Shown piece after piece: positions 10,001 through 37,201 of a stretch of DNA of 48,950 nt. The stretch is from Candidatus Omnitrophota bacterium (GTDB taxonomy: Bacteria; Omnitrophota; Gorgyraeia; JAFGHF01): the NCBI GenBank assembly GCA_020341815.1, contig CP070837.1:387196-436145 (forward strand). The letters run 5' to 3'. The notes beneath the pieces are model-generated. The model did not search any database and had not been told where the DNA came from. It saw nothing but the letters and a program-made list of their open reading frames with translations. The position numbers were made by a program, and so were the translations under genes. Every line of letters starts with the position of its first letter. Positions within the stretch are counted from its first letter, which is position 1.

Positions 10001-10005
10001 AGAAT

Positions 10006-15062: not shown

Positions 15063-17203
15063 AGGTTCTGCAGATTTTACCTGAATTAAATATGGGTGGC
15101 GTAGAGCGCGGATGCATAGATTTGGCCCGCGAGCTCATTAAGCGCAATCACCAGGCCCTTGTTGTCTCTGGCGGCGGGCGTCTTCTGGAGGCTCTTGAGG
15201 CTACGGGTGCCCGGCATATAAAGCTTGCGGTACATAAAAAATCCCCATTCTCTATTTTAGCCAGTATCCCCAGGCTAATAAAAATTCTCCGCGAAGAAAG
15301 GGTTGATATAGTGCATGCCCGCTCAAGAGTGCCGGCTATAATAGCCTTTTTTGCCTGCCGATGCGTATCCACGGCTACTTTTGTAACCACCTGCCACGGC
15401 CATTATAATAAGGGTCTTGCCAGCCGCGTTATGGGCTGGGGGAAGGTTGTCATAGCCCCCAGCAGTGCAATTGCTCATCATATGATTGAATCCTTTGGCG
15501 TGCCCCCTGAACGCATCAAATTGATACCCCGCGGAGTGGATTTAAAAGAGTTTAGGTTTCTTAGGAGAAAATCCGCCCCGCCGATAGGCAAACATAAGCC
15601 GGAAACTTTTACCATAGGAGTTATAGGAAGACTTACACCCATCAAAGGACATAAATATTTTTTACAGGCCCTGGCTAAGGTTATTCGCCTGATGCCTGAA
15701 GCACGGGCAATGATAGTGGGGGAGGCTTCCTCCGGCAAGGAAAGATATATAGAAGAACTTAAAATGCTTACAAGAAGACTGAGCCTGGATAGATATGTTG
15801 AGTTTGCCGCAGCTAAGAATGTTTCAGATATTTTATCTCGCCTCGATATTCTGGTTTTGCCTACGATAACGCAGGAGGCATTCGGCCGCGTGCTTATCGA
15901 GGCTGGGGCCAGCGGCGTTGCGGTGATAGCAACGAGAGTCGGCGGGGTGGTAGATATAATCGAAGACGGGAAAAATGGAATCTTGGTTGAACCCCGGGAT
16001 GCCAATGGTTTGGCCTTAAGCATTATTAGGTTGCTTAAGGATAGCCAGTTACGCCATAGCTTTGAGACTGCGGCCAGAAAAAATGTGGAAGATAACTTTT
16101 CGCTTGAGCAGATGGCGGAGAAGACAATTCGCGTATATGAAGAGCTTCAGAAAACTTTAAAGATTCTGGTAATAAAATTAAGCGCACTGGGGGACATAGT
16201 TTTATCTATTCCTGCTTTTGCGGCCCTGCGAAAGGATTTTCCTCAGGCGCATATAACGGCTTTGGTGGCCACTCCTTTTAAGCCAATTTTGCAAAATTGC
16301 CCTTATATTAATGAAATTATCGAATTTCCTTTAGAAAATAAAAGCTATAAAAAAATTTGGAAGTTCTCCCGTCTATTGAGAAAATTGAATTTCGATGTAG
16401 TTATAGATTTACAGAACAATCGCAAAAGCCATATCCTGGCATATTTGAGCGCTTGCAACAGAAGATATGGCTATGATAACGGCAAGCTCGGCTTCCTCTT
16501 AAATAAAAAAATAAAGGAGATAGACATGCCCCTGTCTCCGATAAAACATCAGGCACGCACCCTCCATTTACTGGGGGTAGAAACTGTAAAAGAACAGTTA
16601 GAGTTGTGGCCGGAAGAAGCGGATGAGACCTGGGCTGAGGAATTTCTTAAACAACATAGAAAAAACAGCTCTCTTCCTTTAATCGGCATAAATATAGGCG
16701 CCTCCGTCAATTGGGCTTCCAAGCGATGGGGTATTGATAAGCTAAAGCTCCTTTTAGATAAATTATCAGAAGAGGGGATAGAGGTGTTGGTTACAGGCCA
16801 GGGGCAGGATAAGGGGTTCTCAAGGCATTTAAGAGATCTTTGCAAGAATGATTTTATTGATGCAGTAGGTGAGACTTCGATTATGCAATTGGCCTGTTTA
16901 ATCAAGCGCTGTAATGTTTATATTACCAGTGATAGCGCTCCCTTGCATATAGCCTATGCCGCCGGCACCCCTGTGATTGCTTTATTCGGGCCTACCGAGC
17001 CCAGGCGTCACGCCCTTCTTGGGCCCAGACAGGTAATTATTAAGAAAAAAATAGATTGCGCCCCCTGTTATAAGAGAAACTGCCGCAAGCATAATTGTAT
17101 GGAAGAAATCAGGACAGAAGAGGTACTCTCAGCGGTTAAGCGTCTCCTGGGGGTGAATGAAGGCAAACCCTATGAAGATACTGTTACTGACAACGCATCT
17201 TAA
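15059..17203 (+). CDS. Fusion: GT4 glycosyltransferase (aa 1-~365) plus GT9 heptosyltransferase-like domain (aa ~366-714)
   Basis: The N-terminal half resembles GT4 (LPTITQEAFGRVLIEAGASGVAVIAT) and is paralogous to the next gene. The C-terminal half starts LKILVIKLSALGDIVLSIPA and ends with the SDSAPLHIA...FGPT...C-x2-C motifs shared with the three GT9 genes downstream. Confidence 0.8.
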   Translation: MKVLQILPELNMGGVERGCIDLARELIKRNHQALVVSGGGRLLEALEATGARHIKLAVHKKSPFSILASIPRLIKILREERVDIVHARSRVPAIIAFFACRCVSTATFVTTCHGHYNKGLASRVMGWGKVVIAPSSAIAHHMIESFGVPPERIKLIPRGVDLKEFRFLRRKSAPPIGKHKPETFTIGVIGRLTPIKGHKYFLQALAKVIRLMPEARAMIVGEASSGKERYIEELKMLTRRLSLDRYVEFAAAKNVSDILSRLDILVLPTITQEAFGRVLIEAGASGVAVIATRVGGVVDIIEDGKNGILVEPRDANGLALSIIRLLKDSQLRHSFETAARKNVEDNFSLEQMAEKTIRVYEELQKTLKILVIKLSALGDIVLSIPAFAALRKDFPQAHITALVATPFKPILQNCPYINEIIEFPLENKSYKKIWKFSRLLRKLNFDVVIDLQNNRKSHILAYLSACNRRYGYDNGKLGFLLNKKIKEIDMPLSPIKHQARTLHLLGVETVKEQLELWPEEADETWAEEFLKQHRKNSSLPLIGINIGASVNWASKRWGIDKLKLLLDKLSEEGIEVLVTGQGQDKGFSRHLRDLCKNDFIDAVGETSIMQLACLIKRCNVYITSDSAPLHIAYAAGTPVIALFGPTEPRRHALLGPRQVIIKKKIDCAPCYKRNCRKHNCMEEIRTEEVLSAVKRLLGVNEGKPYEDTVTDNAS

Positions 17204-18278
17204 TCTCGGCGGTATAGGGATTTATGTGCTTTCGCAAGCCAAGGGTCTTGTCCAGAGGAACCACGAGGTTTTCGTGGCTTCTTCAGGTGGAGATTTGGTT
17301 GCTCTGCTTGAGTCTTTCGGGGTAGAGCACCTGCTTATCAATATAAAGACCAAATCGGCAGTAAGCCCGAAGATATTATTAACTCAGAGAAAAATAGCGC
17401 GAATAATTAAAGAAAAAAACATAGAAATAATTCATGCCCATACCCGTGTAACTCAGGTTTTGGCGCATCTGCTTTCTAAAAAAACGGGTGCGCCTTATGT
17501 AACTACCTGCCACGGTTTCTTCCGGCCGCATAGATTTAGGAAGATTTTGCCCTGCTGGGGAAAGCGCTCTATAGCCATAAGCGAGGCGGTAAGAGAGCAT
17601 CTGGTCAATGATTTGGGGGTAAAGAAGGAAGTGGTTACGGTTGTGCATAATGGTGTGGAGATAGAGAAGTTTTCTCCCGATAAGTTCAATCGGGCCCAAA
17701 AAGAGGAGTTCAGAAAAAATTATGGGCTGAAGGACACCGGGCCCGTAATCGGCACGGTTGCCAGATTTTCTTCTGTTAAAGGACAGCGTTATCTTATCCC
17801 GGCAATGAAAAGAATATTAGAGACTCATCCTGCGGCGCAGCTTTTATTAGTCGGTGAAGGTCCGGAGAAAAAAAGATTGCTTGATGAGGCCGAGGAATTA
17901 GAAATAGAAGATAAGGTCTTTTTCGGGCCTCCTGCCTTGGATACCTCTGTGCCTTTATCTATTATGGATGTGTTTGTTTTGCCTTCTCTTTTGGAGGGAT
18001 TAGGCCTGGCTATTATTGAGGCCCAGGCCATGGGCCTGCCCTGTGTTGCAACCGATGTGGGAGGCATCTATACCCTGGTTAAGGATGGAGTTAATGGTTT
18101 CCTGGTACATCCTAGGGAGCCGACTGCCTTGGCAGAGGCGATTCTAAAATTGCTGATAGATAAAGAACTGGCTCAAAAGTTCGGGCGAGAGGCAAGAATA
18201 CAGGCAACTGCAAGCTTTAACTTAAAACAGATGATCGATGGGATTGAAGAGGTTTACAAGGAAGTCTTAAAAAAATGA
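17172..18278 (+). CDS. GT4 family glycosyltransferase
   Basis: MKILLLTTHLNLGGIG start and LPSLLEGLGLAIIEAQAMGLPCVATDVGG (E-x7-E region). Start chosen at the second ATG; 17157 is also possible. Confidence 0.8.
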   Translation: MKILLLTTHLNLGGIGIYVLSQAKGLVQRNHEVFVASSGGDLVALLESFGVEHLLINIKTKSAVSPKILLTQRKIARIIKEKNIEIIHAHTRVTQVLAHLLSKKTGAPYVTTCHGFFRPHRFRKILPCWGKRSIAISEAVREHLVNDLGVKKEVVTVVHNGVEIEKFSPDKFNRAQKEEFRKNYGLKDTGPVIGTVARFSSVKGQRYLIPAMKRILETHPAAQLLLVGEGPEKKRLLDEAEELEIEDKVFFGPPALDTSVPLSIMDVFVLPSLLEGLGLAIIEAQAMGLPCVATDVGGIYTLVKDGVNGFLVHPREPTALAEAILKLLIDKELAQKFGREARIQATASFNLKQMIDGIEEVYKEVLKK

Positions 18279-19060
18279 AATTAAAAAAGGCGCTTTTAGG
18301 CGCGGGTTTAATAATACTTGTAAGCTTTGTTGCTTTCTATCTTTATCTCAAGCCTAAATATGTTGTGCCTATTTTGATGTATCATCATATCGATGGGAGG
18401 AGTAAAACTTCTTTAGTCAGTGTTTCTCCCCAAAACTTTCGCCGGCAGATGCGTTTTTTGTCCGAGCGTAATTATAATGTAATTTCTTTGGACAAATTCG
18501 TTCAAGACAAGCTTAATGGACAAGAATTTCCGCGAAATACGGTCGTGATAACCTTTGATGACGGCTATGGAGACAATTTTACCTTCGCCTACCCCGTTTT
18601 AAAGGAATATAATTTGCCGGCGACTATTTTTGTAATAACTGATTTTATTGACAAGGAAGGATATCTCACCTCCCGGCAAATCAAAGAGATGCTTTCTTCC
18701 GGCCCGATTACGATCGGTAGCCACACCTTATCCGAGGCTTTTTTGCCGGCAAAAAATACAGAAGAGCTTGAGCGGGAGATAGGCCTCTCTAAAAAATTGC
18801 TGGAGTCAAAGACTGGCGGAAGAGTGGATTTTCTTTGTTATCCTTTCGGTCATTTTACTCCCCAGGCCCAGGAAATTGTAAAAAGATATAATTATTTGGC
18901 CGCTTGCACGACAAATCGGGGGAAAGAGAATACCTACTTGAATGACGACCTCTTTGCCTTGAAGCGAATTAAGATTAAAGATAGCGCTAATCCGATTGTC
19001 CTATACGTAAAGCTTTCGGGATATTACAATTCTTTTAGAAGGGTAAGGAAGCCTTATTGA
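18275..19060 (+). CDS. Polysaccharide deacetylase (CE4/NodB homology domain), membrane-anchored
   Basis: N-terminal TM segment, then VVITFDDGYGDNF and the LPATIFV motif typical of NodB-type deacetylases. Confidence 0.8.
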   Translation: MKLKKALLGAGLIILVSFVAFYLYLKPKYVVPILMYHHIDGRSKTSLVSVSPQNFRRQMRFLSERNYNVISLDKFVQDKLNGQEFPRNTVVITFDDGYGDNFTFAYPVLKEYNLPATIFVITDFIDKEGYLTSRQIKEMLSSGPITIGSHTLSEAFLPAKNTEELEREIGLSKKLLESKTGGRVDFLCYPFGHFTPQAQEIVKRYNYLAACTTNRGKENTYLNDDLFALKRIKIKDSANPIVLYVKLSGYYNSFRRVRKPY

Positions 19061-20079
19061 AGATGGAAAGGATATTGATAGTAAACTTAAATTGGCGGGG
19101 GGATGTTTTATTTTCCACGCCTTTTATCCGGGCGCTTAGAGAAGCTTACCCTGAGAGCTTTCTTGCCACGCTATTGGTGAGACGTTGTGCGCCAATTGTT
19201 GAGAATAGTCCTCATCTGGATGAAGTTATCATATTCGATGAAGATAAAAACCATAAAGGCCTGATGGGTAAATTGAGATTAATCAGGCTGTTGCGCGCTA
19301 AGCATTTTGATACCGTCTTTCTTTTGCACCGTTCTTTTACGCGCACCTTGATTTGTTGGCTTTCCGGTATCCCTGAGCGGATAGGCTACTATACAAAAAA
19401 GAGGGCAAGACTGCTTACTAAGAGTATTATGCCTTCGAAGGATGAACCTCACAGGATAGAATATTTTTTAGATATTGCCAGATCCTGCGGGATAAAAGCG
19501 GAAAATAGCGGTTATGACTTTTTCGTGTCCAGAGAAGACAAAGATTATATCAAGGAACTTTTACACGAGGAAAAACTTCTTAAGGAAAGCGACTTTTTAG
19601 TGGTGATTAATCCGGGGGGCAACTGGGATCTTAAGCGCTGGCCAAAAGAAAACTTTTCTCAACTCGCCGATAGATTAATTAAGGAGTGCGATGCGAAAGT
19701 TATTATTACGGGTGCGCAAGATGACCTAAAGTTAGCACAGGATATAAAAGCCGGCATGAAAAATTCTCCCCTAATTTTATGCGGCAGGACAAGTCTGGGG
19801 CAGCTGGCGGCTTTAATGGCCAGGGTAAATCTGGTTATCTCCAATGATTCAGGGCCGATGCATATTGCCCTTAGCCAGAAGGCAAATGTAGTTTGTCTTT
19901 TTGGGCCTACCTCCAGTAAAATTACCGGTCCCTGCGGCAATGGAAATTATACGGTGCTTCAGAAAGATATAGGTTGCCAAGTTCCCTGCTATGAGCTTAA
20001 TTGTCCTGATAACCGCTGCATGAAGGCAATAGGGGTGGATGAAGTATTTCAGGCGGTCGAGAAAATCAAAAATGGATAA
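19057..20079 (+). CDS. GT9 family glycosyltransferase (heptosyltransferase-like)
   Basis: ILIVNLNWRGDVLFSTP, NDSGPMHIA and FGPTS motifs. TTG 19057 or ATG 19063 could be the start. Confidence 0.8.
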   Translation: MKMERILIVNLNWRGDVLFSTPFIRALREAYPESFLATLLVRRCAPIVENSPHLDEVIIFDEDKNHKGLMGKLRLIRLLRAKHFDTVFLLHRSFTRTLICWLSGIPERIGYYTKKRARLLTKSIMPSKDEPHRIEYFLDIARSCGIKAENSGYDFFVSREDKDYIKELLHEEKLLKESDFLVVINPGGNWDLKRWPKENFSQLADRLIKECDAKVIITGAQDDLKLAQDIKAGMKNSPLILCGRTSLGQLAALMARVNLVISNDSGPMHIALSQKANVVCLFGPTSSKITGPCGNGNYTVLQKDIGCQVPCYELNCPDNRCMKAIGVDEVFQAVEKIKNG

Positions 20080-21058
20080 AACAAAAGTTAAAAAAATTCT
20101 GGTGATTGGCTTAAGTAATATCGGAGATGCAATTTTGACTACTCCGGTTATAGAGGTGTTACGGGAAAACTTCCCTCAGGCGCAATTGGATCTATTAAGC
20201 AGCCAGCGGGCATCCGTTGTATTTAAAAGCGATATCCGTATCGATAAAAAGATCATTTATGATAAAAGTATCAGCTGGATAGAAAAACTGAAATTGATAA
20301 ATAGATTGAAACAAGACAGATATGATTTAGCGGTTGACCTGCGCCAGACGGCATTTAACATCTTTTTAGGGGCAAGATATCACACTTCAATTTTTGCCAG
20401 GGCACCAAAATCTTTAATGCATATGAAAGACAGGCATCTGTGGAAATTGAAATCTCTCGGCCTGGATATAAGCAATGTTATGAGTCCTTCCGTTATGTTT
20501 GGTAAGGATGAGCGCAATTATATTAACAATTTGTTCAATAGCTGGCAGATAAAAGAAGAAGATATTGTAATTGCCTTAAGCCCCGGTGCGCGCAATATGA
20601 CCAAGCGCTGGGAAAAAGAGGGGTACAGGCAGTTGGTTGAGCAGTTGATTAAAAACTATAACACTAAGATTATTATGTTGGGCGATGATGAGGATAGGGT
20701 TTTGGCACAGGAGATAGCTCGTCCTTTCAAGACCCTTGGGGTGTTTCAGGCCGCAGGCGTAACCACTATTTCGCAGCTGGCTCATCTTTTGACCAGGTGC
20801 AGATTACTTGTTTCAAATGATTCGGCTGTAATGCATCTGGGTTGGGCGGTGAACACTCCGGTAGTTGCTATATTCGGGCCGACAAGCCACGAGAAATACG
20901 CTCCCCAGGGAGCGCATGACATAGTGGTGCGTAAGGAGTTGGATTGTTCTCCCTGTGAGGAGTCTCTTTGTCCTGAGGGGCAGCGTCAGTGTATGAAGTC
21001 TATCAGCGCAGAAGAGGTGTTTTTAGCCTGCAGAAAGATATTAAATGGAAAGCGTTAA
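20072..21058 (+). CDS. GT9 family glycosyltransferase (heptosyltransferase-like)
   Basis: KILVIGLSNIGDAILTTP, NDSAVMHLG and FGPTS motifs. Start set at ATG 20072, an 8-nt overlap with the previous gene. Confidence 0.8.
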   Translation: MDKTKVKKILVIGLSNIGDAILTTPVIEVLRENFPQAQLDLLSSQRASVVFKSDIRIDKKIIYDKSISWIEKLKLINRLKQDRYDLAVDLRQTAFNIFLGARYHTSIFARAPKSLMHMKDRHLWKLKSLGLDISNVMSPSVMFGKDERNYINNLFNSWQIKEEDIVIALSPGARNMTKRWEKEGYRQLVEQLIKNYNTKIIMLGDDEDRVLAQEIARPFKTLGVFQAAGVTTISQLAHLLTRCRLLVSNDSAVMHLGWAVNTPVVAIFGPTSHEKYAPQGAHDIVVRKELDCSPCEESLCPEGQRQCMKSISAEEVFLACRKILNGKR

Positions 21059-22097
21059 GAGAATATTGATTACCCGCACCGACCGCATTGGAGACGTGCT
21101 TCTTTCTACGCCTGCGATTAAGGCATTGAGAAAAGCCTTTCCGCAAAGCCATATCGCCGTAATGGTAAGGCCTTATGCCCGGGATATAGTTTTAGGTAAC
21201 CCCTATTTAGATGAAGTAATTATTTATGATAAATATGGGGCGCAACGCTCATTTTGGAAGACTATAAAGTTTGCCCGGGATTTAAGAGCCAGGAGATTTG
21301 ACTTGGCGCTTGTGCTTCATCCTACCCGCCGTCAGCACCTGATAACCTTTTTAGCGGGAATAAAAAAGAGAGTCGGCTTTAACCTGAAATTGGGTTTTTT
21401 GCTTACGGATAAGCTTGAGCACAAAAAACAAGAAGGCAAGAGGCATGAGCTGGAATACACCCTGGATATAGTTCGCTCACTCGGCATTAAGGCGCAGGAT
21501 AAAGATTTATTTATGCCGATACGAAAAGACAGCGAGATGCATATAGAGAGGCTTCTGCAGGCAGAGAATATCAATAAAATGGTTGCCCTTCATCCGGGAG
21601 CAAGCTGTGCTTCCAAGCTCTGGCCGCTGGAGAGATTTGCCCGGGTAGCCGATGCGCTTATTGAAAGGTTTAATGTAAAAATAGTGGTTTTATCTTCCAA
21701 GGATGATATAGCCAGAGGAAAGAGGCTCTTAAGCCTTATACATCATGCTTGTATCGATGCCTGCGGCATGACTACGGTCAGTGAGCTGGCCAGTCTTTTA
21801 AGAAAGTGCTCTCTTTTAATCTGCAATGATTCAGGCCCTATGCACATTGCCGCAGCTCTCAAGATGCCGGTAATTGCTATCTTTGGCCGGGCCCAGGCCG
21901 GCTTAAGTCCCCGCCGCTGGGGTCCCCGCGGCAAGGATAATGTAGTTTTACATAAGGATGTGGGATGCTCTGAGTGCCTGGCCCATAATTGTCAAAAAGG
22001 TTTTGCCTGTCTTAGTGCCGTTTCCGTGCAGGAAGTAGTGGAAGCGGCAGTAAGGGCGTATAGCAATACACCTTTATATATTCAATTGACAGCCTAA
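21045..22097 (+). CDS. GT9 family glycosyltransferase (heptosyltransferase-like)
   Basis: ILITRTDRIGDVLLSTP, NDSGPMHIAAA and the IFG motif. Confidence 0.8.
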   Translation: MESVKRILITRTDRIGDVLLSTPAIKALRKAFPQSHIAVMVRPYARDIVLGNPYLDEVIIYDKYGAQRSFWKTIKFARDLRARRFDLALVLHPTRRQHLITFLAGIKKRVGFNLKLGFLLTDKLEHKKQEGKRHELEYTLDIVRSLGIKAQDKDLFMPIRKDSEMHIERLLQAENINKMVALHPGASCASKLWPLERFARVADALIERFNVKIVVLSSKDDIARGKRLLSLIHHACIDACGMTTVSELASLLRKCSLLICNDSGPMHIAAALKMPVIAIFGRAQAGLSPRRWGPRGKDNVVLHKDVGCSECLAHNCQKGFACLSAVSVQEVVEAAVRAYSNTPLYIQLTA

Positions 22098-22137
22098 TAG
22101 GTCACGTGTTAAAATAATGGTTCTGTGAGGTTACGAG

Positions 22138-23124
22138 ATGATGAATTGGAATAAAGCAGGACTAAAAAGGGTTGTTGCCGGTTTTAAGCGGGCAAAGATA
22201 CTGGTTATCGGGGACTTAATCTTGGATGAGTTTATCTGGGGTAAAGTCTCCCGCATCTCTCCGGAGGCCCCGGTTCCGGTAGTCTGGGTAAACTCCGAAT
22301 CCTTTATGCCGGGAGGGGCGGCAAATGCAGCCAATAATATTCATGCCTTAGGTGCTCAGGCCTATATCTGCGGGGTTATAGGGGGCGATGAGCGGGGCAG
22401 AGTTCTTACCGATGAATTACGCCGCAAGAATATCGATGTAGAAGGTATAGTTATTGATAATGAACGGCCCACCACCTTGAAGACCCGTGTAATCGCCCAT
22501 CATCAGCAAGTGGTGCGTATTGACCGGGAAAAAGTGGAGGAGATCGATGATAATATCATCAATCAGATGCTTACCTTTGCAAAAGAGAAAATCAACGAAG
22601 TCGACGCCGTACTTATTGAAGATTATGGCAAAGGAGCGGTAGTCTCTAGGCTCCTTCAGGAAGTTATTGCTCTGGCGCAAAAACATAAAAAAATTATCAC
22701 GGTTGACCCCAAAGAAAACCATTTTTCTTTTTACGAGAATGTTTCTTTGATTACCCCCAATCATTACGAGGCCGCCCGGGCAGTAGGCCGGGAAATAAAA
22801 AGCCAGGCGGATTTGGAGGAAATCGGCCGCAGCTTGCTTGCCAAACAGAAATGCCGTGCTGTATTGATTACTCTGGGAGAAGAAGGGATGTGCCTTTTTG
22901 AGGATAAGCGCCAGTCGGTGCATATTCCTACCGTAGCCCAGGAGGTATTTGATGTCTCAGGGGCCGGAGACACAGTAATCAGCGCAGCCTCCGTGGCTTT
23001 AGCCAGCGGCGCCTCGATGCTGGAGAGCGCATATATTTCCAATTATGCCGCCGGGATTGTAGTAGGGAAGGTAGGCGTAACAGTGGCCACGCAGGAAGAA
23101 TTATTGGAGGAATTGAGCAAATGA
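22138..23124 (+). CDS. hldA: D-glycero-beta-D-manno-heptose-7-phosphate kinase (RfaE domain I only, PfkB family)
   Basis: 328 aa with ILVIGDLILDEFIWG and DVSGAGDTV ribokinase-family motifs. No adenylyltransferase domain is fused. Confidence 0.8.
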   Translation: MMNWNKAGLKRVVAGFKRAKILVIGDLILDEFIWGKVSRISPEAPVPVVWVNSESFMPGGAANAANNIHALGAQAYICGVIGGDERGRVLTDELRRKNIDVEGIVIDNERPTTLKTRVIAHHQQVVRIDREKVEEIDDNIINQMLTFAKEKINEVDAVLIEDYGKGAVVSRLLQEVIALAQKHKKIITVDPKENHFSFYENVSLITPNHYEAARAVGREIKSQADLEEIGRSLLAKQKCRAVLITLGEEGMCLFEDKRQSVHIPTVAQEVFDVSGAGDTVISAASVALASGASMLESAYISNYAAGIVVGKVGVTVATQEELLEELSK

Positions 23125-23255
23125 ACCCCGCCCTTCCTAAACACTCCCATTGATAAGTCAAGGGCGAGGGTCAGGATGTTTAATCATATGGTTGATAGTT
23201 TAGCAAAAGTAAAGTCTAACCTTGGCATTGCGAAGAAAGGAAGGGCGGGGTGAAA
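23122..23255 (+). promoter_or_regulatory. Intercistronic stop-to-start RNA element, copy 1 (C-rich arm at the hldA stop, G-rich arm covering the kdsB SD and GTG)
   Basis: ACCCCGCCCTTCCT (23125-23138) is the exact reverse complement of AGGAAGGGCGGGGT (23238-23251). The end sequences are shared with 39492-39607. Confidence 0.5.
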
Positions 23256-24005
23256 GCTATAGGCGTAATTCCGGCAAGGTTTGCATCAACTCGTTTTCCG
23301 GGGAAGGTTCTGGCTGAGCTCAATGGGCGCCCTTTAATTCAGCATGTTTATGAAGAGGCCCTTAAGGCCAGCAGCCTGCAGGATCTTCTGGTTGCTACCG
23401 ATGAGGAAAAGGTGGTAAAGGCAGTGGAAGACTTTGGGGGCCAGGCTGTGCTTACGGCCAAGGAACACAGGTCCGGCACAGACCGCTTAAGAGAGGTAGT
23501 TAACTCAATTGATGCCAAGATAGTAGTGAATATCCAGGCGGATGAGCCCATGATTCATTTCTCGATGATCGATAGGCTGGTGAATTGCCTCTCGGAAGAT
23601 CCGCATGTTCCTATGGCTACGCTGATTCATAGAATTGAAGATGTACATGAGCTGGATAATCCCAATGTGGTGAAAGTAGTCAAAGACAAAAGCAATTTCG
23701 CTCTTTATTTTTCACGTTCTCTGATTCCGCATTCACACTTGCCTGTTTTTATCTCGCGCTCTTTATTTTTATATAAACACCTGGGGATTTATGCCTACAC
23801 CAAAGATTTCTTATTTACTTTTACTAATCTGCCGGTGAGGGAATTGGAGCGGGCGGAACAGCTGGAGCAATTGCGTGCCTTAGAGAACGGCTATAAAATA
23901 AAAGTTATCGAGACAGATATTAATACCATCGGAGTAGATACGCCCGAGGACTTGGAGAGGGTCAGGCAGAGGATGCAGCAAGATGAGGCAAACGCGAGAA
24001 GTTAA
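23250..24005 (+). CDS. kdsB: 3-deoxy-manno-octulosonate cytidylyltransferase (CMP-Kdo synthetase)
   Basis: GTG start. VIPARFASTRFPGK N-terminus and NIQADEP motif. Confidence 0.9.
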   Translation: MKAIGVIPARFASTRFPGKVLAELNGRPLIQHVYEEALKASSLQDLLVATDEEKVVKAVEDFGGQAVLTAKEHRSGTDRLREVVNSIDAKIVVNIQADEPMIHFSMIDRLVNCLSEDPHVPMATLIHRIEDVHELDNPNVVKVVKDKSNFALYFSRSLIPHSHLPVFISRSLFLYKHLGIYAYTKDFLFTFTNLPVRELERAEQLEQLRALENGYKIKVIETDINTIGVDTPEDLERVRQRMQQDEANARS

Positions 24006-24819
24006 AATAGGCAGGATAAAATTAAGCAATAAAGCGCCCTTGGCTCTCATTGCCGGACCGTGCGTGATTGAGGGTGAGAAGTTTTGCCTTGATTGCGCGC
24101 GCCAGTTAAAGAAGATTTCGCTTAAAATGGATGTGCCTTTTATATTCAAGGCCAGCTATGATAAAGCCAATCGCACATCCTTAAAATCTTTTCGCGGCCC
24201 GGGAATAAAAAGAGGCCTCGAGATTTTAAAGAAGATTAAGCAGGATTTGTCTTTACATGTGCTTAGCGATGTTCACTGCCGTACAGAGATGGATAAGGCC
24301 GCTTCTATTTTAGATGTAATTCAAATCCCGGCGTTCTTATCCCGTCAAACAGACCTGCTTTTGGCCGCAGCCAGAACAAAGCTGCCCTTAAACATAAAAA
24401 AGGCCCAGTTTTTAGCCCCGTGGGACGTAAAAAATGTTCTTGAGAAGGTTACCTCTGCCGGCAATAAAAATATAATCGTTACCGAGAGAGGAAGTCTGCT
24501 TGGTTACAACAATTTGGTCAGCGATATGCGCGCTCTTAAGATTTTAGGCGGGTATGGTTACCCGGTATTCTTTGATGCTACGCATAGCGTGCAACTGCCT
24601 GGCGGGGCGGGTGTCTCTTCCGGAGGACAGAGAGAGTTTGTTCCTGCTCTGGCTTGCGCCGCAGTTGCAGTTGGCTGCGCCGGACTTTTCCTGGAAGTTC
24701 ACCCTCATCCCGATAAGGCGCTTTCGGACGGGCCGAATATGATTACTTTTAGTGAATTGGAAAAACTATTGAAGCGTCTTAAACAGATTGATAAAATCAT
24801 AAAAAGTTCTAACTCATAG
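23983..24819 (+). CDS. kdsA: 2-dehydro-3-deoxyphosphooctonate aldolase (Kdo-8-P synthase)
   Basis: 278 aa. LIAGPCVIE, FKASYDKANR, IQIPAFLSRQTDLL and FDATHSVQ motifs. Confidence 0.95.
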   Translation: MRQTREVKIGRIKLSNKAPLALIAGPCVIEGEKFCLDCARQLKKISLKMDVPFIFKASYDKANRTSLKSFRGPGIKRGLEILKKIKQDLSLHVLSDVHCRTEMDKAASILDVIQIPAFLSRQTDLLLAAARTKLPLNIKKAQFLAPWDVKNVLEKVTSAGNKNIIVTERGSLLGYNNLVSDMRALKILGGYGYPVFFDATHSVQLPGGAGVSSGGQREFVPALACAAVAVGCAGLFLEVHPHPDKALSDGPNMITFSELEKLLKRLKQIDKIIKSSNS

Positions 24820-26300: not shown

Positions 26301-27182
26301 ATGAAAGAAAATATTTCATCGGGCAGGATTTTAATTTTTGTATGCATAGTTTCTTTGCTGGTCTCCGGTTGCGCTCGGGAAGATAAGGTTGAGGTAAAAA
26401 GAGAGCTGGAAGAGGCGCCGGATGAGATGCTGTCGGTCTTTTCTTTAAGTGGTTATACTAAGGGCGGAAAAAAAGAATGGGATTTGGAGGGCAAAAGCGC
26501 TGATATAAGCCTTGAAGAGATTAAACTGAAGGATGTAACCGCCAAGCTTTACGGCAAGGATACCAATATGACCATTGTGGCAGATAAAGGCAGCCTCAAT
26601 CGGCTGAATAACAGCGTGCATTTGGAGAAGGATGTTGTAGTTACCTCTGACGATGGCGCTACTTTGACTACGGATTATCTGGACTGGGATGCCGAGGCGC
26701 AGAGGCTTGCCAGCGAGGCCCCGGTTTGGATAAAAAGAGGGATGATGGAGGCCGCCGGCATAGGCATTACGGCTCAACCGGTATTAAACCAGGTAGAATT
26801 AAAAAAGGATGTGACGGTAAAGATGTCTTTGGGAACTACCATTACCTGTAAAGGCGTTTTGGCGGTCGATTATCAAAAAAATCTGGCTATTTTTCAAGAT
26901 AACGTAAAAGTAAAGGATAAGCGGGGTGAGATTTTCGCCGATAAAATGGATATCTGTTTTGCCACCCAGAATGAAGAGGAAAAACAGTTAGAGGGCATGG
27001 AAGGCATGGGTATAGAAAAAGTTACGGCTGTCGGCTCGGTCCAGATACATCGCGCCGACAACATTACTTATAGCGAGCGAGCCGTCTATGATACAAATGA
27101 AGGCAGGCTTACTTTAACGGGACAGCCGAAACTTGTTATTTATTCTACAAAAGACTTCAGTCAGCTTATGGCAGGTGAATAA
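26301..27182 (+). CDS. LptC-like plus LptA/OstA-like two-domain LPS transport protein with a lipoprotein-type signal peptide
   Basis: Lipobox LLVSGC. aa ~40-165 show the LptC-like pattern (KLKDVTAKLYG...VHLEKDVVVTSDDGATLTTDYLDWD). aa ~170-285 show an OstA-like pattern (AIFQDNVKVKDKRGEIFADKM...AVGSVQIHRADNITYSERAVYD...LTLTGQPKL). Lies in the conserved position between kdsC and lptB. Confidence 0.6.
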   Translation: MKENISSGRILIFVCIVSLLVSGCAREDKVEVKRELEEAPDEMLSVFSLSGYTKGGKKEWDLEGKSADISLEEIKLKDVTAKLYGKDTNMTIVADKGSLNRLNNSVHLEKDVVVTSDDGATLTTDYLDWDAEAQRLASEAPVWIKRGMMEAAGIGITAQPVLNQVELKKDVTVKMSLGTTITCKGVLAVDYQKNLAIFQDNVKVKDKRGEIFADKMDICFATQNEEEKQLEGMEGMGIEKVTAVGSVQIHRADNITYSERAVYDTNEGRLTLTGQPKLVIYSTKDFSQLMAGE

Positions 27183-28993: not shown

Positions 28994-29608
28994 ATGACAA
29001 ACTACGCTCAGGGCCTTGTGCCCATAGTAGTCGAACAGACGCCCAAGGGAGAAAGGGCATATGACATTTACTCCCGCCTGCTTAAAGACCGGATTATTTT
29101 TATCGGCAGTATCGTTAATGATATCATAGCCAATATAGTTATAGCACAGATGCTTTTCTTGCAGATGGATGACCCCGACAGAGAAATCAATGTCTATATC
29201 AATTCTCCCGGGGGAATAGTTACCTCAGGTCTGGCTATCTATGACACCATGCAGTTTGTCAAGCCCGATGTTTGCACTTATTGTGTGGGCCAGGCTACCA
29301 GTATGGGCGCCGTACTTCTGGCCGCCGGCGCAAAAGGAAAAAGATATGCCCTTCCTCATTCCCGGGTGATGATTCATCAGCCTTGGGGTGGCGTGCAGGG
29401 AGCAGCTGCGGATATCAGTATTCAGGCAAAAGAAATCTTGACCCTTCGCGATAGGCTTTACGATATTTTGGTCAGACACACAGGACAGTCTATGGATAAG
29501 ATTAAGAAGGACTGTGATAGAGATTTCTTTATGTCTGCTGATGAAGCCGAGAATTACGGCCTTGTGGATGAGGTAATTACAGGCGGAAAGGCTAAGAAAA
29601 GAAGATAA
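28994..29608 (+). CDS. clpP: ATP-dependent Clp protease proteolytic subunit
   Basis: [14 protein letters not shown] (catalytic Ser) and MIHQP (His) motifs. ATG 28994 is preceded by AAGGAGG. Confidence 0.95.
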
Positions 29609-29621
29609 GCGAGGTTCGCCA

Positions 29622-30773
29622 ATGAAGAAATACCTGCTTACTCCCGGACCGACGCCCCTTCCGGATGAGGTGCGCAAGGCTTTAGCTCTGCCGATTATTC
29701 ATCACCGCACGCCCGAGTTCCAAAAGATATTTATTCGGGTTAATGAGGGGCTGAAGTATCTCTTTCAGACCCAGAATGATATATTTACTTTTGCCGGTTC
29801 CGGAACAGCGGCAATGGAGGCGGCGGTAGTTAATCTACTTTCTGCGAATGATACGGCAATAGCGGTTTGCGGGGGTAAGTTTGGCGAGCGTTGGCGTGAA
29901 ATCTGCCAGGCTTATAATGTGAAGGTTATATCTATCGATGTAGAGTGGGGAAAGGCAGTCGAACCTGCTGAAATTAAACGGCTGCTCGCAGAACATAAAG
30001 AGACCAAAGCCGTATTTACCACTTTGTGTGAGACCTCTACGGGCGTAACCAACGATATTAAAACTATCGCCGAAATAGTGAAGGCATCACCCGCAGCATT
30101 GGTCGTGGATGCCGTCAGCGGCCTGGGCGCAGAGGAATTGCAAACCGATAAATGGGGTGTGGACTGTGTCGTGGCCGGCTCGCAAAAGGCAATGATGCTT
30201 CCGCCGGGTTTGAGTTTCTGCAGCATAAGTCCCAAGGCGCGTAAAGCGATTGAAAGCTCAAAGCTGCCCAAATATTATTTTGATTTGCGAAAGGCAAAGA
30301 AGGCGCTGGATAAATCGGATACGACTTTTACGCCCCCGGTCTCCCTGATTGTTGCTTTGGCCGAGGCCCTAGATTTAATCAAAAAAGAAGGCCTGGAGAA
30401 TGTTTTCAAAAGACACAAAATAATGGCCGAGAGCGCCCGAGGCGCCCTTTTGGCTTTGGGCTTTAAGCTTTTTTCGGAAACTTTTTGCAATGTAGTAACG
30501 GCAGCTTATACTCCGGAAGGAATTGACAGCACGCAACTGGTAAAATTGCTGCGTGATAAATACGGAGTGAGCATTGCCAACGGACAGGAGCAATTTAAAG
30601 GCAAACTCATCCGCCTTGCCCATCTGGGATATATTCAACCTTCCGATATAATAACGGGAATTTCTGCAATAGAAAAAGCCTTATCTGAATTAGGGTATAA
30701 GGTAGAATCAAAAAAAAGCGTTCACGCCGCAGAGCGGATATTCGATAATTATTTTAAAGGAGCGAAAAAATGA
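29622..30773 (+). CDS. Class-V pyridoxal-phosphate aminotransferase (serine-pyruvate / phosphoserine aminotransferase type)
   Basis: 383 aa with GSGTAAMEAAVVNLL and SQKAMMLPPGLSF (PLP-Lys region). Overlaps serA by 4 nt, consistent with a role in serine synthesis. Confidence 0.8.
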   Translation: MKKYLLTPGPTPLPDEVRKALALPIIHHRTPEFQKIFIRVNEGLKYLFQTQNDIFTFAGSGTAAMEAAVVNLLSANDTAIAVCGGKFGERWREICQAYNVKVISIDVEWGKAVEPAEIKRLLAEHKETKAVFTTLCETSTGVTNDIKTIAEIVKASPAALVVDAVSGLGAEELQTDKWGVDCVVAGSQKAMMLPPGLSFCSISPKARKAIESSKLPKYYFDLRKAKKALDKSDTTFTPPVSLIVALAEALDLIKKEGLENVFKRHKIMAESARGALLALGFKLFSETFCNVVTAAYTPEGIDSTQLVKLLRDKYGVSIANGQEQFKGKLIRLAHLGYIQPSDIITGISAIEKALSELGYKVESKKSVHAAERIFDNYFKGAKK

Positions 30774-32350
30774 AGGTTCTGGTAAGTGATAAGCTTGCCC
30801 CCGAGGGTCTGGCAGTCTTTAAAAAGGAAAAAGGTATTCAGGTGGATGTAAAGACGGGCCTTTCTCATGATGAATTGAAGAAGATTATCCGCGATTATGA
30901 CGGCCTGATTGTGCGCAGTTCCACCAAAGTGACCAAAGATATAATCGCAGCGGGAAAAAAATTGAAGATTATCGGCCGCGCCGGAGTAGGCCTGGATAAC
31001 ATTGATGTAGAGGCGGCCTCAAGAGGCGGAATTGTGGTGATGAATGCACCCGGTGGAAATACTATTTCTACTGCAGAGCACACGCTGAGCATGATTTTAG
31101 CACTTTCGCGCAATATTCCCTTGGCATGCCTTTCCTTAAGAGAAGGCCGCTGGGACAGGAAAAAATTTATGGGCGTAGAGTTATACGGTAAAATCTTGGG
31201 GGTTATCGGCCTGGGCAGAATTGGTATTGAGGTGGCCAGGCGGGCAATGAGCTTCGGAATGAAGGTCTTGGCGTTTGATCCCTATCTTTCCTTAGATAAA
31301 GTAAAAACCCTCAATGTCGAAGCGGTTGATTTGAAAAAACTTCTTAAACAATCCGACTATATTAGTATCCACACACCCTTGACAGATGAGACCAAACACC
31401 TGATTTCCGATAAAGAAATGTCTTTAATGAAAAAAGGTGTGCGGCTTGTCAATTGCGCCCGGGGCGGCATCATTGATGAGGAGGCTCTCTTTAAAAATCT
31501 AAAATCCGGCAGGATTGCCGGTTGCGCTTTAGACGTCTATGAAAAAGAACCTCCTTTACATAGCCCTCTTTTGAAATTGGATAATGTAGTTGCTACACCT
31601 CACCTGGGGGCCTCTACAGAAGAGGCACAGGTGCATGTAGCTATTGATATGGCAAAACAAATCTCCGATGGCCTGATGGGCCGGGGGATGTGCAATGCGG
31701 TTAACGCTCCCTGTCTGAGGCCTGAAGTTGCAGAACTGCTTAAGCCATATGTTGCTTTAGCCGAGAGGCTCGGCTCTCTGCAAAGTCAGCTTGTTAGCGG
31801 ACAAATTAGCCGGGTAAAGATTGAATACAGAGGAGATATAGGAGGGTATGAGACCGCCCCCATAACGGTTGCCTGTATTAAAGGATTGCTTACGCCTTTT
31901 ATGGGTGATACGGTCAATTATGTTAACGCCTGTGTCCTGGCTAAGGATAGAGGTATAGCCGTAGAGGAAACCAAGACAGAGAGAATAGAAAACTTTGCCA
32001 ATCTGATTGCTGTCAAGGTCGCGACCTCAAAAGAGGAATTGGATGTCTGGGGCACGATTTTTGCCAGGGAAGATGCGCGCATAGTAAAGATTGATAAATA
32101 TTATGTGGAGGCGCATCCGAAAGGATATATGCTGATAATCAGAAATCGCGACCTGCCCGGTATAGTAGGGCATATCGGCACTCTCTTAGGCCAGAATAGA
32201 ATTAATATTGCCGAGATGACCTTTGGGCGGGAGAAGCCCGGGGGAGCGGCAATTACGGTATTAAATGTGGACAGTTCCGTGCCTGCCGGAGTTTTAGAAA
32301 AAATAAAGAAGGCCAAAAATATATTTGATGCAAAATTAATTAAATTATAA
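30770..32350 (+). CDS. serA: D-3-phosphoglycerate dehydrogenase (long form with ASB and ACT domains)
   Basis: 526 aa. GVIGLGRIGIEVA NAD motif and a C-terminal ACT-like domain (LIIRNRDLPGIVGHIGTLLG). Confidence 0.9.
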   Translation: MKVLVSDKLAPEGLAVFKKEKGIQVDVKTGLSHDELKKIIRDYDGLIVRSSTKVTKDIIAAGKKLKIIGRAGVGLDNIDVEAASRGGIVVMNAPGGNTISTAEHTLSMILALSRNIPLACLSLREGRWDRKKFMGVELYGKILGVIGLGRIGIEVARRAMSFGMKVLAFDPYLSLDKVKTLNVEAVDLKKLLKQSDYISIHTPLTDETKHLISDKEMSLMKKGVRLVNCARGGIIDEEALFKNLKSGRIAGCALDVYEKEPPLHSPLLKLDNVVATPHLGASTEEAQVHVAIDMAKQISDGLMGRGMCNAVNAPCLRPEVAELLKPYVALAERLGSLQSQLVSGQISRVKIEYRGDIGGYETAPITVACIKGLLTPFMGDTVNYVNACVLAKDRGIAVEETKTERIENFANLIAVKVATSKEELDVWGTIFAREDARIVKIDKYYVEAHPKGYMLIIRNRDLPGIVGHIGTLLGQNRINIAEMTFGREKPGGAAITVLNVDSSVPAGVLEKIKKAKNIFDAKLIKL

Positions 32351-32442
32351 TAGTTCGTAGTTCATAGTTCGTGGTTCATAGATTTTTATCTTTTGTCTAT
32401 GAACTATGAACTCATAACTATGAACCATTTTGATTTATTTTT
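32351..32442 (+). terminator. Long hairpin built from TAGTTCR heptamer arrays (4 forward, 4 inverted) plus a T-rich tail; probable serA terminator
   Basis: TAGTTCG TAGTTCA TAGTTCG TGGTTCA TAGA, then a 13-nt loop, then TCTA TGAACTA TGAACTC ATAACTA TGAACCA, then TTTTGATTTATTTTT. It starts at the first base after the TAA stop. Confidence 0.55.
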
Positions 32443-32460
32443 AAAGAAAGGCAAAATAAG

Positions 32461-34991
<2,531 letters not shown>

Positions 34992-35012
34992 AAAAATGAC
35001 GAGGTTATCGAC

Positions 35013-37100: not shown

Positions 37101-37112
37101 GCGCAATTTTTC

Positions 37113-37141
37113 TTGACTTTGTATTGTCGGGGTGTTATAGT
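37113..37141 (+). promoter_or_regulatory. Candidate sigma70-type promoter for the OmpA-like gene
   Basis: TTGACT (37113-37118), 17-nt spacer, TATAGT (37136-37141). Confidence 0.55.
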
Positions 37142-37201
37142 TAAAAATTATAGATAGACAAAAATATAAGTTATGGACATCGAACTAAACGGAGGTGAGA
37201 G

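Follow-up and report, generated by a model that had tools for sequence, protein, structure and literature searches.

Closure of a downstream ribosome-binding site by upstream pairing, which a translating ribosome then melts, is known from the MS2 coat-replicase arrangement and from ermC-type leader-peptide attenuation. Both are fixed arrangements that evolved at single loci, whereas the family described here delivers such an arrangement ready-made on a transposable element. Among mobile sequences, the Correia elements of Neisseria (CREE/NEMIS) resemble this family in being small and non-coding, in having terminal inverted repeats and a target-site duplication, which in their case is TA, and in occurring as dispersed copies. 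The terminal repeats of Correia elements are 26 bp long (PMC3049150). They are reported to be co-transcribed with their neighbours, to form a long hairpin in the mRNA and to affect the expression of adjacent genes (PMC3049150; PMC2649163), and one of these studies attributes their action to promoters, IHF sites and RNase III (PMC2649163). The present family differs in its 13-bp repeats of unrelated sequence, in its TGAA or TGAG duplication and in the absence of a promoter-like signal. Unlike Correia elements, it sits on start codons in one orientation, rebuilds a Shine-Dalgarno (SD) sequence together with a start codon, and often carries a bridging open reading frame (ORF). For the REP2 repeats of Neisseria, the accessible part of the source states that terminal inverted repeats are absent; REP2 and the Borrelia IR sequences carry a promoter, and the accessible text on them mentions neither target duplication nor insertion polymorphism, whereas transposition of the present family is demonstrated by its empty sites, and scans revealed nothing promoter-like in it.

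The closest functional analogue is found in integrons, where ORF-11, ORF-17 and ORF-18 of attI1 and the short ORFs of attC sites provide a short ORF of unconstrained sequence with its own ribosome-binding site, whose translation crosses a recombination or hairpin region, and the downstream gene is translated through translational coupling or termination-reinitiation (PMC8876359). Integrons, however, rely on site-specific recombination of cassettes and have no sequence or structural homology with this family, in which, unlike in integrons, it is the struck gene's own displaced start codon that opens the short ORF. Rickettsia palindromic elements (RPEs), like this family, are mobile palindromic repeats tolerated where they affect coding regions because frame or expression is preserved (PMC10969869); they interrupt ORFs and become a translated segment of the host protein, whereas the present family does not alter that protein and replaces only the translation-initiation region. 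No description of this start-codon element system was found in the literature. Here we report a previously undescribed family of small mobile elements in which a start codon, with its own ribosome-binding site, is rebuilt at the landing site.

Results

We analysed a 48,950-nt stretch of the Candidatus Omnitrophota contig CP070837.1 (hereafter the window), in which the junctions hldA|kdsB (copy 1) and cdsA|dxr (copy 2) each carry a pair of inverted arms reaching the GTG start of the downstream gene. NCBIfam models identified the gene upstream of copy 1 as TIGR02198 (rfaE_dom_I) and the downstream gene as kdsB, whose ORF (23250-24005) aligns to KdsB profiles from residue 1, while copy 2 is flanked by genes for a phosphatidate cytidylyltransferase (cdsA) and Dxr. 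At each junction the arms belong to a MITE-like, non-autonomous transposable element that was inserted recently (Table 1). The corresponding junctions are empty in L157 (kdsB, GAGCAAATGAAAGCTATAGG) and L161 (dxr, TTTATGCAATGAAGACCGTTGCC), two loci from one sample (SRR24270831) with 90-95% DNA identity to the window (about 92%) over about 33 kb. Each empty junction is exactly the window sequence minus the element and minus one TGAA, with TGAA standing once at each empty site and twice at each window junction, and removal of the element restores an ATGA overlap of stop and start at both window junctions. Relatives with 77% identity have both junctions empty too. In the closer relative, kdsB and dxr begin with ATG at the codons equivalent to GTG 23250 and GTG 39602 of the window. 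A mobile insertion that supplied the SD and the GTG is, in our judgement, highly probable.

A preliminary description of this DNA, which located the arms, the stop, the GTG and an internal segment correctly, had counted on conservation of the arms in relatives with the same gene order. This expectation failed, as both copies are absent from the ~92%-identical relative, where the genes meet in simple ATGA overlaps. The duplicated TGAA and the restored ATGA overlap did not figure in that description. It had also portrayed the two copies as alike at their ends and different inside; the likeness of the ends held, and it reaches past the arms, covering about 25 nt on the 5' side and about 34 nt on the 3' side. 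An nhmmer profile search of the window returned no copies, degenerate or other, beyond these two, and the weak arm-like matches at 26915-26927 and 41821-41833 were rejected as copies.

Table 1 Features of the two insertions and their junctions, in window coordinates
Feature	Position	Strand	Evidence or remark
hldA-type kinase ORF	22138-23124	+	stop TGA 23122-23124
ATGA, overlap before insertion: old kdsB ATG 23121-23123, hldA stop TGA 23122-23124	23121-23124	+	empty site L157
Left target-site duplication TGAA, copy 1	23122-23125	+	L157 bases 10002-10005 align here and at 23251-23254
Right target-site duplication TGAA, copy 1	23251-23254	+	alignment to L157
MITE-like element copy 1, 125 bp	23126-23250	+	missing in L157; nhmmer family profile E = 4e-21
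5' terminal inverted repeat CCCCGCCCTTCCT, copy 1	23126-23138	+	
ORF-a copy 1, from old ATG over the 5' repeat	23121-23153	+	MNPALPKHSH; stop TGA 23151-23153
Internal G-rich relic AAGGGCGAGGGT, 3'-arm-like, possible SD of ORF-b	23160-23171	+	subfamily alignment
ORF-b copy 1, 25 aa, MFNHMVDSLAKVKSNLGIAKKGRAG	23176-23253	+	stop TGA 23251-23253 overlaps new GTG
3' terminal inverted repeat AGGAAGGGCGGGG, copy 1: new Shine-Dalgarno and G of GTG	23238-23250	+	
New kdsB GTG: final element base plus TG of duplicated target	23250-23252	+	
cdsA stop TGA	39492-39494	+	
ATGA: old dxr ATG overlapping cdsA stop	39491-39494	+	empty site L161
Left target-site duplication TGAA, copy 2	39492-39495	+	L161 bases 10002-10005 align here and at 39603-39606
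Right target-site duplication TGAA, copy 2	39603-39606	+	alignment to L161
Copy 2 of the MITE-like element, 107 bp, shorter than copy 1 by an internal deletion	39496-39602	+	missing in L161; nhmmer E = 4e-15
5' terminal inverted repeat CCCCGCTCTTCC, copy 2	39496-39507	+	
ORF-a copy 2, from old ATG, MNPALPKHHALHNIYGRR	39491-39547	+	stop TAA 39545-39547
ORF-b copy 2, 23 aa, overlaps end of ORF-a	39534-39605	+	stop TGA 39603-39605 overlaps new GTG
Relic internal 3'-arm-like segment GGAAGGATGGGG, copy 2	39553-39564	+	
3' terminal inverted repeat GGAAGGGTGGGG, copy 2: new SD and G of GTG	39591-39602	+	
New dxr start GTG	39602-39604	+	ORF 39602-40741 matches TIGR00243 from residue 1

More than 130 copies with the same architecture were found in independent assemblies, so the architecture is not due to chance, and the idea that further copies exist proved right. 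Members of the family are 100-127 bp long, carry a 13-bp inverted repeat at either terminus (CCCCGCCCTTCCT / AGGAAGGGCGGGG; copy 1 has a perfect pair) and are flanked by a 4-bp target duplication of TGAA or TGAG. Their interior sequence is not conserved across the family and has no capacity to code for a transposase, the longest internal ORFs being about 25-44 codons. Dozens of copies occur in the Omnitrophota MAGs JAUWBJ01 and JAZDHS01 and 1-4 in about 16 further MAGs; scattered copies are present in about 18 MAGs and many metagenome contigs. Some MAGs in the analysis are labelled 'Clostridia' or 'Elusimicrobia'. Genome-specific subfamilies, mini forms and head-to-tail tandems with one common TGAA were seen, and the kdsB start was struck independently in MAG JAUWBJ. 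The flanks of 77 copies from species-representative genomes were TGAA/TGAA in 68, TGAG/TGAG in 4, CTGA/CTGA in 1 and TTGA/TTGA in 1; those of 59 metagenome copies matched in 54, 7 of them as TGAG/TGAG. Overall, 128 of 136 copies have matched flanks, and variant flanks agree with each other. Small size, terminal inverted repeats, a target-site duplication with empty sites and many dispersed copies are thus all found, as in a MITE. In loci totalling ~1.5 Mb, searches for solo arms (<=2 mismatches) or for arm pairs 0.3-4 kb apart revealed no autonomous partner, there were no multi-copy ORFs across loci or within MAGs, from which multi-copy IS are often missing, and no transposase was identified in the sampled loci.

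About 89% of the copies lie exactly on a gene start codon, and a long ORF runs from the GTG in 121/136. GTG stands at the right junction in 130 of the 136 copies, the base preceding TGA is A or G in 129/132, and the left flank shows an SD-like peak centred 8-11 nt upstream of the old start, found in 54% of copies versus 12% at control positions. The element precedes many unrelated genes, and at most sites no upstream gene ends at the left TGA; the start codon, rather than the stop-to-start junction, is the common denominator of the sites. A null model that combines a TGAR preference with the loss of gene-disrupting insertions expected 64% of copies at starts, against 86-89% observed, and intergenic DNA makes up 2.2% of the loci examined. 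TGAR preference and purging therefore largely predict the placement, and a specific 'targeting' of starts is not demonstrated. Orientation is fixed (136 copies versus at most 1), although the target is non-palindromic, and such behaviour is unusual among classical DDE transposons. This one-way orientation at a 4-bp target may reflect an unusual, asymmetric target recognition by a putative transposase.

The arms of copy 1, ACCCCGCCCTTCCT (23125-23138) and AGGAAGGGCGGGGT (23238-23251), are reverse complements without a mismatch and lie 99 nt apart; in copy 2, pairing of 39495-39507 with 39591-39603 includes two G-U pairs. The minimum-free-energy fold of copy 1 contains the long-range helix (z = -4.35), which, as the preliminary description had proposed, is predicted to bury the SD and the GTG, at an opening cost for the ribosome-binding site of 19.0 kcal/mol that falls to 8.2 once a ribosome footprint covers the upstream stop. 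The second instance of this architecture at cdsA|dxr was equally borne out, its arms pairing in a fold with the same long-range helix (z = -2.54) and predicted costs of 11.9 and, with the footprint, 4.3 kcal/mol. Across the family, folding prediction gave a median cost of 18.9 kcal/mol for opening the new ribosome-binding site, whereas 59 ordinary starts had a median of 6.4 (p = 3e-19); placing a ribosome footprint over the old site brought the cost down to 6.5, and the old ribosome-binding site costs 6.3. We infer from these folds that the helix forms in vivo.

Neither a contingency table nor RNAalifold on 36 non-redundant copies detected compensatory covariation in the arms. The RNAalifold covariation term was -0.05 kcal/mol, and the sole variable pair was broken in 7/36 sequences, often as a C.A mismatch. 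One diverged copy (L016) has matched changes in both arms; co-evolution of repeat and transposase predicts these equally well, and transposase binding explains the conservation of the arms equally well. The internal G-rich segment AAGGGCGAGGGT, once put forward as a decoy partner for the 5' arm, turned out to be a decaying relic of an internal 3' arm, which within the subfamily is intact in one copy (L130), survives in part in several others and is missing from most copies, including the commonest variant. When copy 2 is folded in a longer context, the minimum-free-energy structure joins GGAAGGATGGGG (39553-39564) to the 5' arm. Neither copy yielded a sigma-70-like promoter or an intrinsic terminator when scanned, which ruled out an attenuator/terminator or an outward promoter. 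Rfam 15 gave no match for the whole window at gathering thresholds or for 23050-23330 at E <= 1, in line with the initial impression that the structure belongs to no named RNA family.

In every copy an ORF that crosses the 5' arm starts at the old ATG, with its native SD, which upstream of kdsB is a GGAGG, and this ORF begins with MNPALP in nearly all. Length class 1 (66/122 copies) comprises the copies whose old-ATG frame runs to a TGA that overlaps the new GTG, and in this class the bridging ORF is conserved. It is fully open in 35/66 versus 4.3 expected from shuffled interiors, with 0.70 internal stops in the bridging frame where the two alternative frames have 3.1 and 2.5 (p = 7e-9), and the signal persisted after clustering at 80% identity (18/33 clusters versus 6/41, p = 4e-4). 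Length classes other than class 1 showed no stop bias. Bridges and two-ORF relays together account for 88/122 copies versus about 24 expected, at a frequency independent of an upstream gene ending at the left TGA. Both window copies belong to length class 2, have the single bridge closed and show the two-ORF layout (ORF-a plus ORF-b); in copy 1, a TAA (23138-23140) follows the 5' repeat in the third frame. The excess of two-ORF relays in class 2 is borderline, with 10 observed versus 3.7 expected and a shuffle maximum of 10. The family thus has the layout of a coupling class, in which an upstream ORF with its own ribosome-binding site runs across the sequestering arm and/or ends at the downstream start.

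Discussion

The element entered a TGAA spanning the ATGA overlap, at hldA|kdsB as at cdsA|dxr. The left TGAA duplicate preserves the upstream stop and the old ATG, while the 3' repeat brings a Shine-Dalgarno sequence and its last G combines with the TG of the right duplicate into a GTG at the original first codon. Since the GTG stands at exactly that codon, the protein is unchanged, and since the element carries its own ribosome-binding site and start codon, the essential gene downstream is still translatable. In the mRNA, the repeats would pair and close the new ribosome-binding site, and the site would be opened by ribosomes that terminate at the upstream stop or that translate the short ORF from the old ATG across the 5' repeat. 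Downstream expression would in this way stay coupled to the original translation signals, which we call a 'translational relay'.

We give this account as a whole, comprising mobile insertion, rebuilt start and relay coupling, a probability of about 0.75. The relay taken by itself is mildly favoured by the predicted folds and the ORF layouts, and from the same evidence coupling would be the mode by which kdsB and dxr are translated. The preliminary description had viewed the structure as a device for coupling or as an SD-sequestering switch between the two genes. The coupling part agrees with the lower cost when a ribosome sits on the stop and with the ORF statistics, but empty relatives and target duplications speak against a conserved intercistronic RNA; coupling is retained here as something that the insertion would bring about. 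Going further, we tentatively suggest that the element may be a portable translation-initiation cassette for ultra-compact genomes, which would settle on start codons and exchange the SD and start for its own, and in which the repeats and a selected MNPALP...KGRAG ORF would relay ribosomes from the displaced start to the new one and render the insertion nearly silent, leaving the gene under its former translational control.

The element could instead be a MITE that is selfish and nothing more, with no role in expression for its RNA structure or its short ORFs and with an SD and GTG that initiate independently. The helix would then be tolerated or melted by transcription-translation traffic, and the placement would reflect TGAR preference plus purifying selection. 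Such an element would fit a null model that already puts 64% of tolerated TGAR sites at start codons, arms without covariation, a decaying internal arm, window copies without a single bridging ORF, and bridges or relays that are independent of the upstream gene. The stop depletion in class 1 (p = 7e-9) and the excess of that class (66/122), however, are hard to obtain without selection for translation, and an opening cost of ~19 kcal/mol before essential genes requires some opening mechanism. On this balance we consider a purely selfish MITE unlikely.

A REP/REPIN-type palindrome moved by a RAYT (IS200/IS605-like Y1), with the right TGAA forming part of the element, would share the GC-rich inverted arms and the strict orientation beside a fixed tetranucleotide that is typical of single-strand Y1 transposition. 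Nevertheless, the flanks vary together (TGAG/TGAG in 11 copies, CTGA/CTGA, TTGA/TTGA), and covarying flanks mean a true target duplication. The arms are terminal and 75-105 nt apart rather than subterminal hairpins, a GTAG-type head is absent, and no RAYT gene occurs in the sampled loci, a partial sample; we regard this origin as very improbable.

Still less credible is a dedicated, vertically inherited cis-regulatory RNA of these operon junctions, acting as an SD-sequestering switch or an obligatory coupling device. A stable long-range helix over the SD and start codon, and identical ends at two junctions of one genome, are what such an RNA would show, but the reading is already contradicted by both junctions being empty in the ~92%- and 77%-identical relatives. 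Target-site duplications and tandem copies are foreign to it, the downstream genes are unrelated and mostly lack an upstream gene ending at the left TGA, and the interiors are unconserved, with a covariation term of -0.05 and no Rfam match. The compensatory changes and the occupied orthologous junctions that generally mark a structured cis-regulatory RNA are both absent. Integron attC-like recombination sites between gene cassettes have practically no chance of accounting for the elements: although attC sites, too, are intergenic imperfect palindromes (about 60-140 nt), whose short ORFs relieve hairpin barriers to translation (PMC8876359), the housekeeping neighbours in conserved synteny already contradict this reading, the ends are CCCCGCC.../...GGCGGGG and not RYYYAAC/GTTRRRY, and 4 bp of target are duplicated on insertion.

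If mobile insertion with a rebuilt start and relay coupling is the true account, the element persists in genomes with almost no intergenic DNA by rebuilding the start codons that it strikes, which would revise what counts as a 'safe site' for insertion. The essential genes kdsB and dxr now rely here on ribosome-binding sites supplied by a transposon. For annotation, the family accounts for 'spacers' of 100-130 nt with GTG starts in Omnitrophota operons, and caution is advisable with the short MNPALP... ORFs and apparent regulatory hairpins found there, which derive from a mobile element. More than 130 natural variants of a long-range SD-sequestering helix, with or without a bridging ORF, make coupling over ~100 nt testable, and the one-way orientation at the non-palindromic TGAA suggests a transposase that is as yet uncharacterised. 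If it is indeed a portable initiation cassette, the family would be a translation-level counterpart to elements that neutralise their own insertion by RNA splicing, the IStrons, or by protein splicing, the inteins.

Insertion of a MITE-like element at the hldA/kdsB and cdsA/dxr junctions

The objects at the hldA/kdsB and cdsA/dxr junctions are copies of a new MITE-like family of Candidatus Omnitrophota (100-127 bp, 13-bp terminal inverted repeats, TGAA or TGAG duplication), and both copies in the window (copy 1, 23126-23250; copy 2, 39496-39602) are recent insertions. All features listed in the preliminary description were found at their coordinates. The hldA-type kinase ORF (22138-23124, TIGR02198 match; stop TGA 23122-23124) is followed by ACCCCGCCCTTCCT (23125-23138), the exact reverse complement of AGGAAGGGCGGGGT (23238-23251) at a spacing of 99 nt, and kdsB starts with GTG at 23250. 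The second copy claimed at cdsA/dxr was also recovered between the cdsA stop (39492-39494) and the dxr start (GTG 39602), its arms pairing with two G-U pairs. The two copies are alike over their first ~25 nt and last ~34 nt (5' to 3') and have different interiors, and a profile search detected exactly these two in the window. The proposed long-range helix was present in the minimum-free-energy folds (z = -4.35 for copy 1, -2.54 for copy 2), and the view that this is not a named RNA family held, with no Rfam match at gathering thresholds or at E <= 1. Sequence scans revealed no promoter-like or terminator-like signals inside either copy. A direct TGAA repeat, overlooked previously, flanks each copy (aTGAA-CCCCGC...GGGG-TGAA). 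In-silico removal of the element together with one TGAA yielded ...GCAAATGAAAGCT... and ...TGCAATGAAGACC..., both ATGA stop/start overlaps in which the ATG of kdsB or dxr occupies the exact codon that is now GTG.

This predicted empty site was compared with a close relative represented by contigs L157 and L161, both from sample SRR24270831, whose KdsB and Dxr homologues are 96% and 92% identical to those of the window and whose DNA is 90-95% identical to window 13155-24807 and 29409-42658. At both junctions the alignments gave exactly the predicted site, a 4-nt gene overlap with one TGAA, and BLAST aligned this single TGAA with both window TGAA copies. The insertions of 125+4 bp and 107+4 bp therefore post-date the split from this relative, which has ~92% DNA identity to the window. 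Both junctions are empty too in relatives with 77% protein identity, and a profile search of the relatives' syntenic loci found no element copies. In MAG JAUWBJ another subfamily has inserted at the kdsB start as well, and the empty site in the window's close relative shows that the two events at this position were independent.

A second indel difference from the close relative was observed at 32351-32458, where ~108 nt between the stop of a serA-like gene and the start of the next gene are absent from L161. Within this insert, which is unrelated to the MITE, GTTCATA-like units make up an imperfect inverted repeat of 34 nt; a T-rich tract and an SD belonging to the insert come after it. No further copy of the insert was found in any fetched locus.

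A dispersed family with target-site duplication

A search with the two arms as query, flanks left unspecified, covered a single genome of each species and gave 76 loci, with dozens of copies in the Omnitrophota MAGs JAUWBJ01 and JAZDHS01 and 1-4 copies each in ~16 further MAGs. About 11 matches were unrelated high-GC palindromes and were rejected. Likewise, identical 12-nt arms in high-GC soil bacteria (Pyrinomonadaceae, Terriglobia and others) were excluded as REP-like palindromes, as their flanks (L120, L124, L132, L144, L128, L187, L201, L218, L221 and others) lengthen the palindrome (e.g. TTGC/GCAA, ATGC/GCAT) and show no duplication.

Copies were oriented by internal asymmetry, independently of the flanks. 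Among 77 family copies the flanks were TGAA/TGAA in 68, TGAG/TGAG in 4, CTGA/CTGA and TTGA/TTGA in one each and mismatched in 3; left and right thus vary together, as in a true target-site duplication. Orientation relative to the target was identical in 77/77. Immediately 5' of TGA stood A (62 copies), G (12) or C (1), and the right junction was G|TG in 73/77. The new GTG was followed by at least 60 open codons in 66/77; in 2 others the locus edge cut the count short. The pattern was replicated by 59 copies from metagenomes, which were scanned independently: flanks matched in 54/59 (7 of these TGAG/TGAG), GTG stood at the right junction in 57/59, the downstream ORF in 53/59 had no stop within 60 codons or before the contig edge, and at most 1/59 had a reverse-type flank.

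Head-to-tail tandems with one common TGAA occur in the family. Mini forms of 35-50 nt (arm, 15-26-nt loop, arm) were seen at L093 690-739, L084 3349-3397, L141 476-~510 and L122 3101-~3147, joined head-to-tail to a standard copy via TGAA or TGAG, and probably account for the relic G-arm inside standard copies. The CTGA/CTGA and TTGA/TTGA duplications belong to one JAUWBJ01 subfamily (3' end AAAAAATAGGAAGGGCGGGG; L089 6697-6805, L139 3024-3132), and their one-base shift relative to TGA hints that the cut position is subfamily-dependent. In another Omnitrophota MAG, a 46-nt hairpin occurs twice, 578 nt apart (L014 952-997 and 1530-1575), and its arms ACCCCGCCCTTTC...GAAAGGGCGGGGT resemble the MITE arms. 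Family copies in MAGs labelled Elusimicrobia (JACRDM01, L082) and Clostridia (CAZFDO01, L095, L101, L123, L146) may reflect mislabelling or cross-phylum spread.

The start codon as insertion site

A stop-to-start junction, the setting originally described, is not the common one: a long upstream ORF ends at the left TGA in only 27-29/77 copies and 20/59 metagenome copies. It is the start codon, rather than the stop codon, that serves as target. A purine-rich peak lies 8-11 nt 5' of the left RTG, and an SD-like 4-mer is found in the left flank of 54% of copies versus 12% of randomly chosen control positions. The left RTG is therefore the native start, displaced by the insertion (old start). On the right, the 3' repeat AGGAAGGGCGGGG carries an AAGGA/GGAAGG Shine-Dalgarno ~8 nt upstream of the new GTG, itself formed by the last G of the repeat and TG of the duplicated target. 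Profile alignments of KdsB and Dxr begin at residue 1, and the relatives' genes open with the corresponding codon; hence both proteins are unchanged.

We built a null model for this placement on 66.7 kb of element-free relatives (L157, L158, L161, L162), of which 2.2% is intergenic. Gene junctions there are 4-nt overlaps in 13/59 cases and NTGAR stands at the start of 30/59 genes, which makes roughly every second start codon a potential safe target. Preference for TGAR plus loss of gene-disrupting insertions predicts ~64% of survivors at start codons versus 86-89% observed (p = 2e-5, for non-independent copies). This excess, though real, is modest, and we therefore make no claim that start sites are specifically recognised. 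The fixed orientation is not accounted for by selection, since the repeats are identical and a reversed copy would give the same SD and GTG.

RNA folding and short ORFs across the element

Conservation of the fold does not support an RNA switch: RNAalifold of 36 non-redundant copies returned the 13-bp terminal helix only, covariation contributed -0.05 kcal/mol, and the sole variable arm pair was C.A in 7/36 sequences. A diverged copy (L016) has matched changes in both arms, a pattern that transposase-binding repeats predict as well. The G-rich segment 23160-23171, suggested as a decoy partner for the 5' arm, is a relic internal 3' arm and is not kept across the subfamily: it survives whole in L130 and in part in several copies, and is absent from the commonest variant. 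In a longer context, the computed fold of copy 2 favours pairing of the 5' arm with the internal decayed G-arm.

The predicted cost of opening the new RBS (-16..+4) was 19.0 kcal/mol for copy 1 and 11.9 for copy 2, falling to 8.2 and 4.3 kcal/mol with a 28-nt ribosome footprint over the old stop/start; the native RBS of the empty alleles would cost 7.3 (hldA/kdsB) and 11.9 kcal/mol (cdsA/dxr). Across 73 copies the median was 18.9 kcal/mol versus 6.4 for 59 ordinary starts (p = 3e-19), and the computed footprint lowered it to 6.5, with the old RBS remaining open at 6.3.

The ORF from the old start always opens MNPALP because the 5' repeat encodes these codons, and the interior of the peptide shows no conservation from one subfamily to another. 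For element lengths of 1 mod 3, the old-ATG frame ends at the right-hand TGA overlapping the new GTG (GTGA). This class is over-represented among 122 distinct copies (66 versus 28 and 28) and is open end to end in 35/66 versus 4.3 expected from shuffled interiors (maximum 10 in 300 shuffles), compared with 7/56 versus 4.8 in the remaining classes. Its interiors contain 0.70 stops in the old-ATG frame versus 3.11 and 2.45 in the others, with zero stops in 55% versus 3% and 12% (Wilcoxon p = 7e-9); other length classes showed no frame bias in stops. After clustering at 80% identity, the frame was open in 18/33 clusters of the 1 mod 3 class versus 6/41 (p = 4e-4). The constraint acts on the open frame, not on the protein, and it argues for translation across the element.

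A bridging ORF or a two-ORF relay would give translational continuity from old to new start in 88/122 copies versus ~24 expected. Copies 1 and 2 are both 2 mod 3, with the old ATG in frame with the new GTG and an early stop between. The relay excess in this class is borderline (10 versus 3.7 expected, shuffle maximum 10), and the relay is equally frequent, not rarer, where the upstream gene ends at the left TGA. In an oriented 101-nt copy (L146 6477-6586), no stop separates the in-frame old ATG and new GTG, and the gene could be made with an element-encoded 35-residue N-terminal extension.

Short ORFs across the two window copies
Feature	Position	Strand	Remark
ORF-a, copy 1	23121-23153	+	from old ATG
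ORF-a, copy 2	39491-39547	+	from old ATG
ORF-b, copy 1	23176-23253	+	25 aa; terminal TGA overlaps new GTG
ORF-b, copy 2	39534-39605	+	23 aa; terminal TGA overlaps new GTG

Comparison with known systems

MITEs are defined structurally as small, non-coding, multi-copy sequences with terminal inverted repeats and a target duplication (PMC3049150). The element fits this definition, except that no autonomous partner was found among solo arms and multi-copy ORFs in the fetched loci. Identity with a Correia element, REP/REPIN or attC site was rejected in each case on membership criteria. According to PMC3184786, Neisseria REP2 and Borrelia IR repeats bring an RBS and ATG directly upstream of genes; unlike the Omnitrophota element, REP2 is stated there to be without terminal repeats, and a target duplication is mentioned for neither. 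Rebuilding of start codons by a MITE is not described in the literature searched or in the MITE reviews PMC10969869 and PMC3184786.

Functionally, the closest experimentally supported analogue is integron attI1 ORF-11/17/18 together with the attC short ORFs, where a hairpin barrier is overcome by ribosomes translating a short ORF of unconstrained sequence, to which translation of the next gene is coupled (PMC8876359). The coupling device first envisaged between hldA and kdsB is not why the sequence exists; coupling is instead a plausible outcome of the insertion, with family-wide statistical support.
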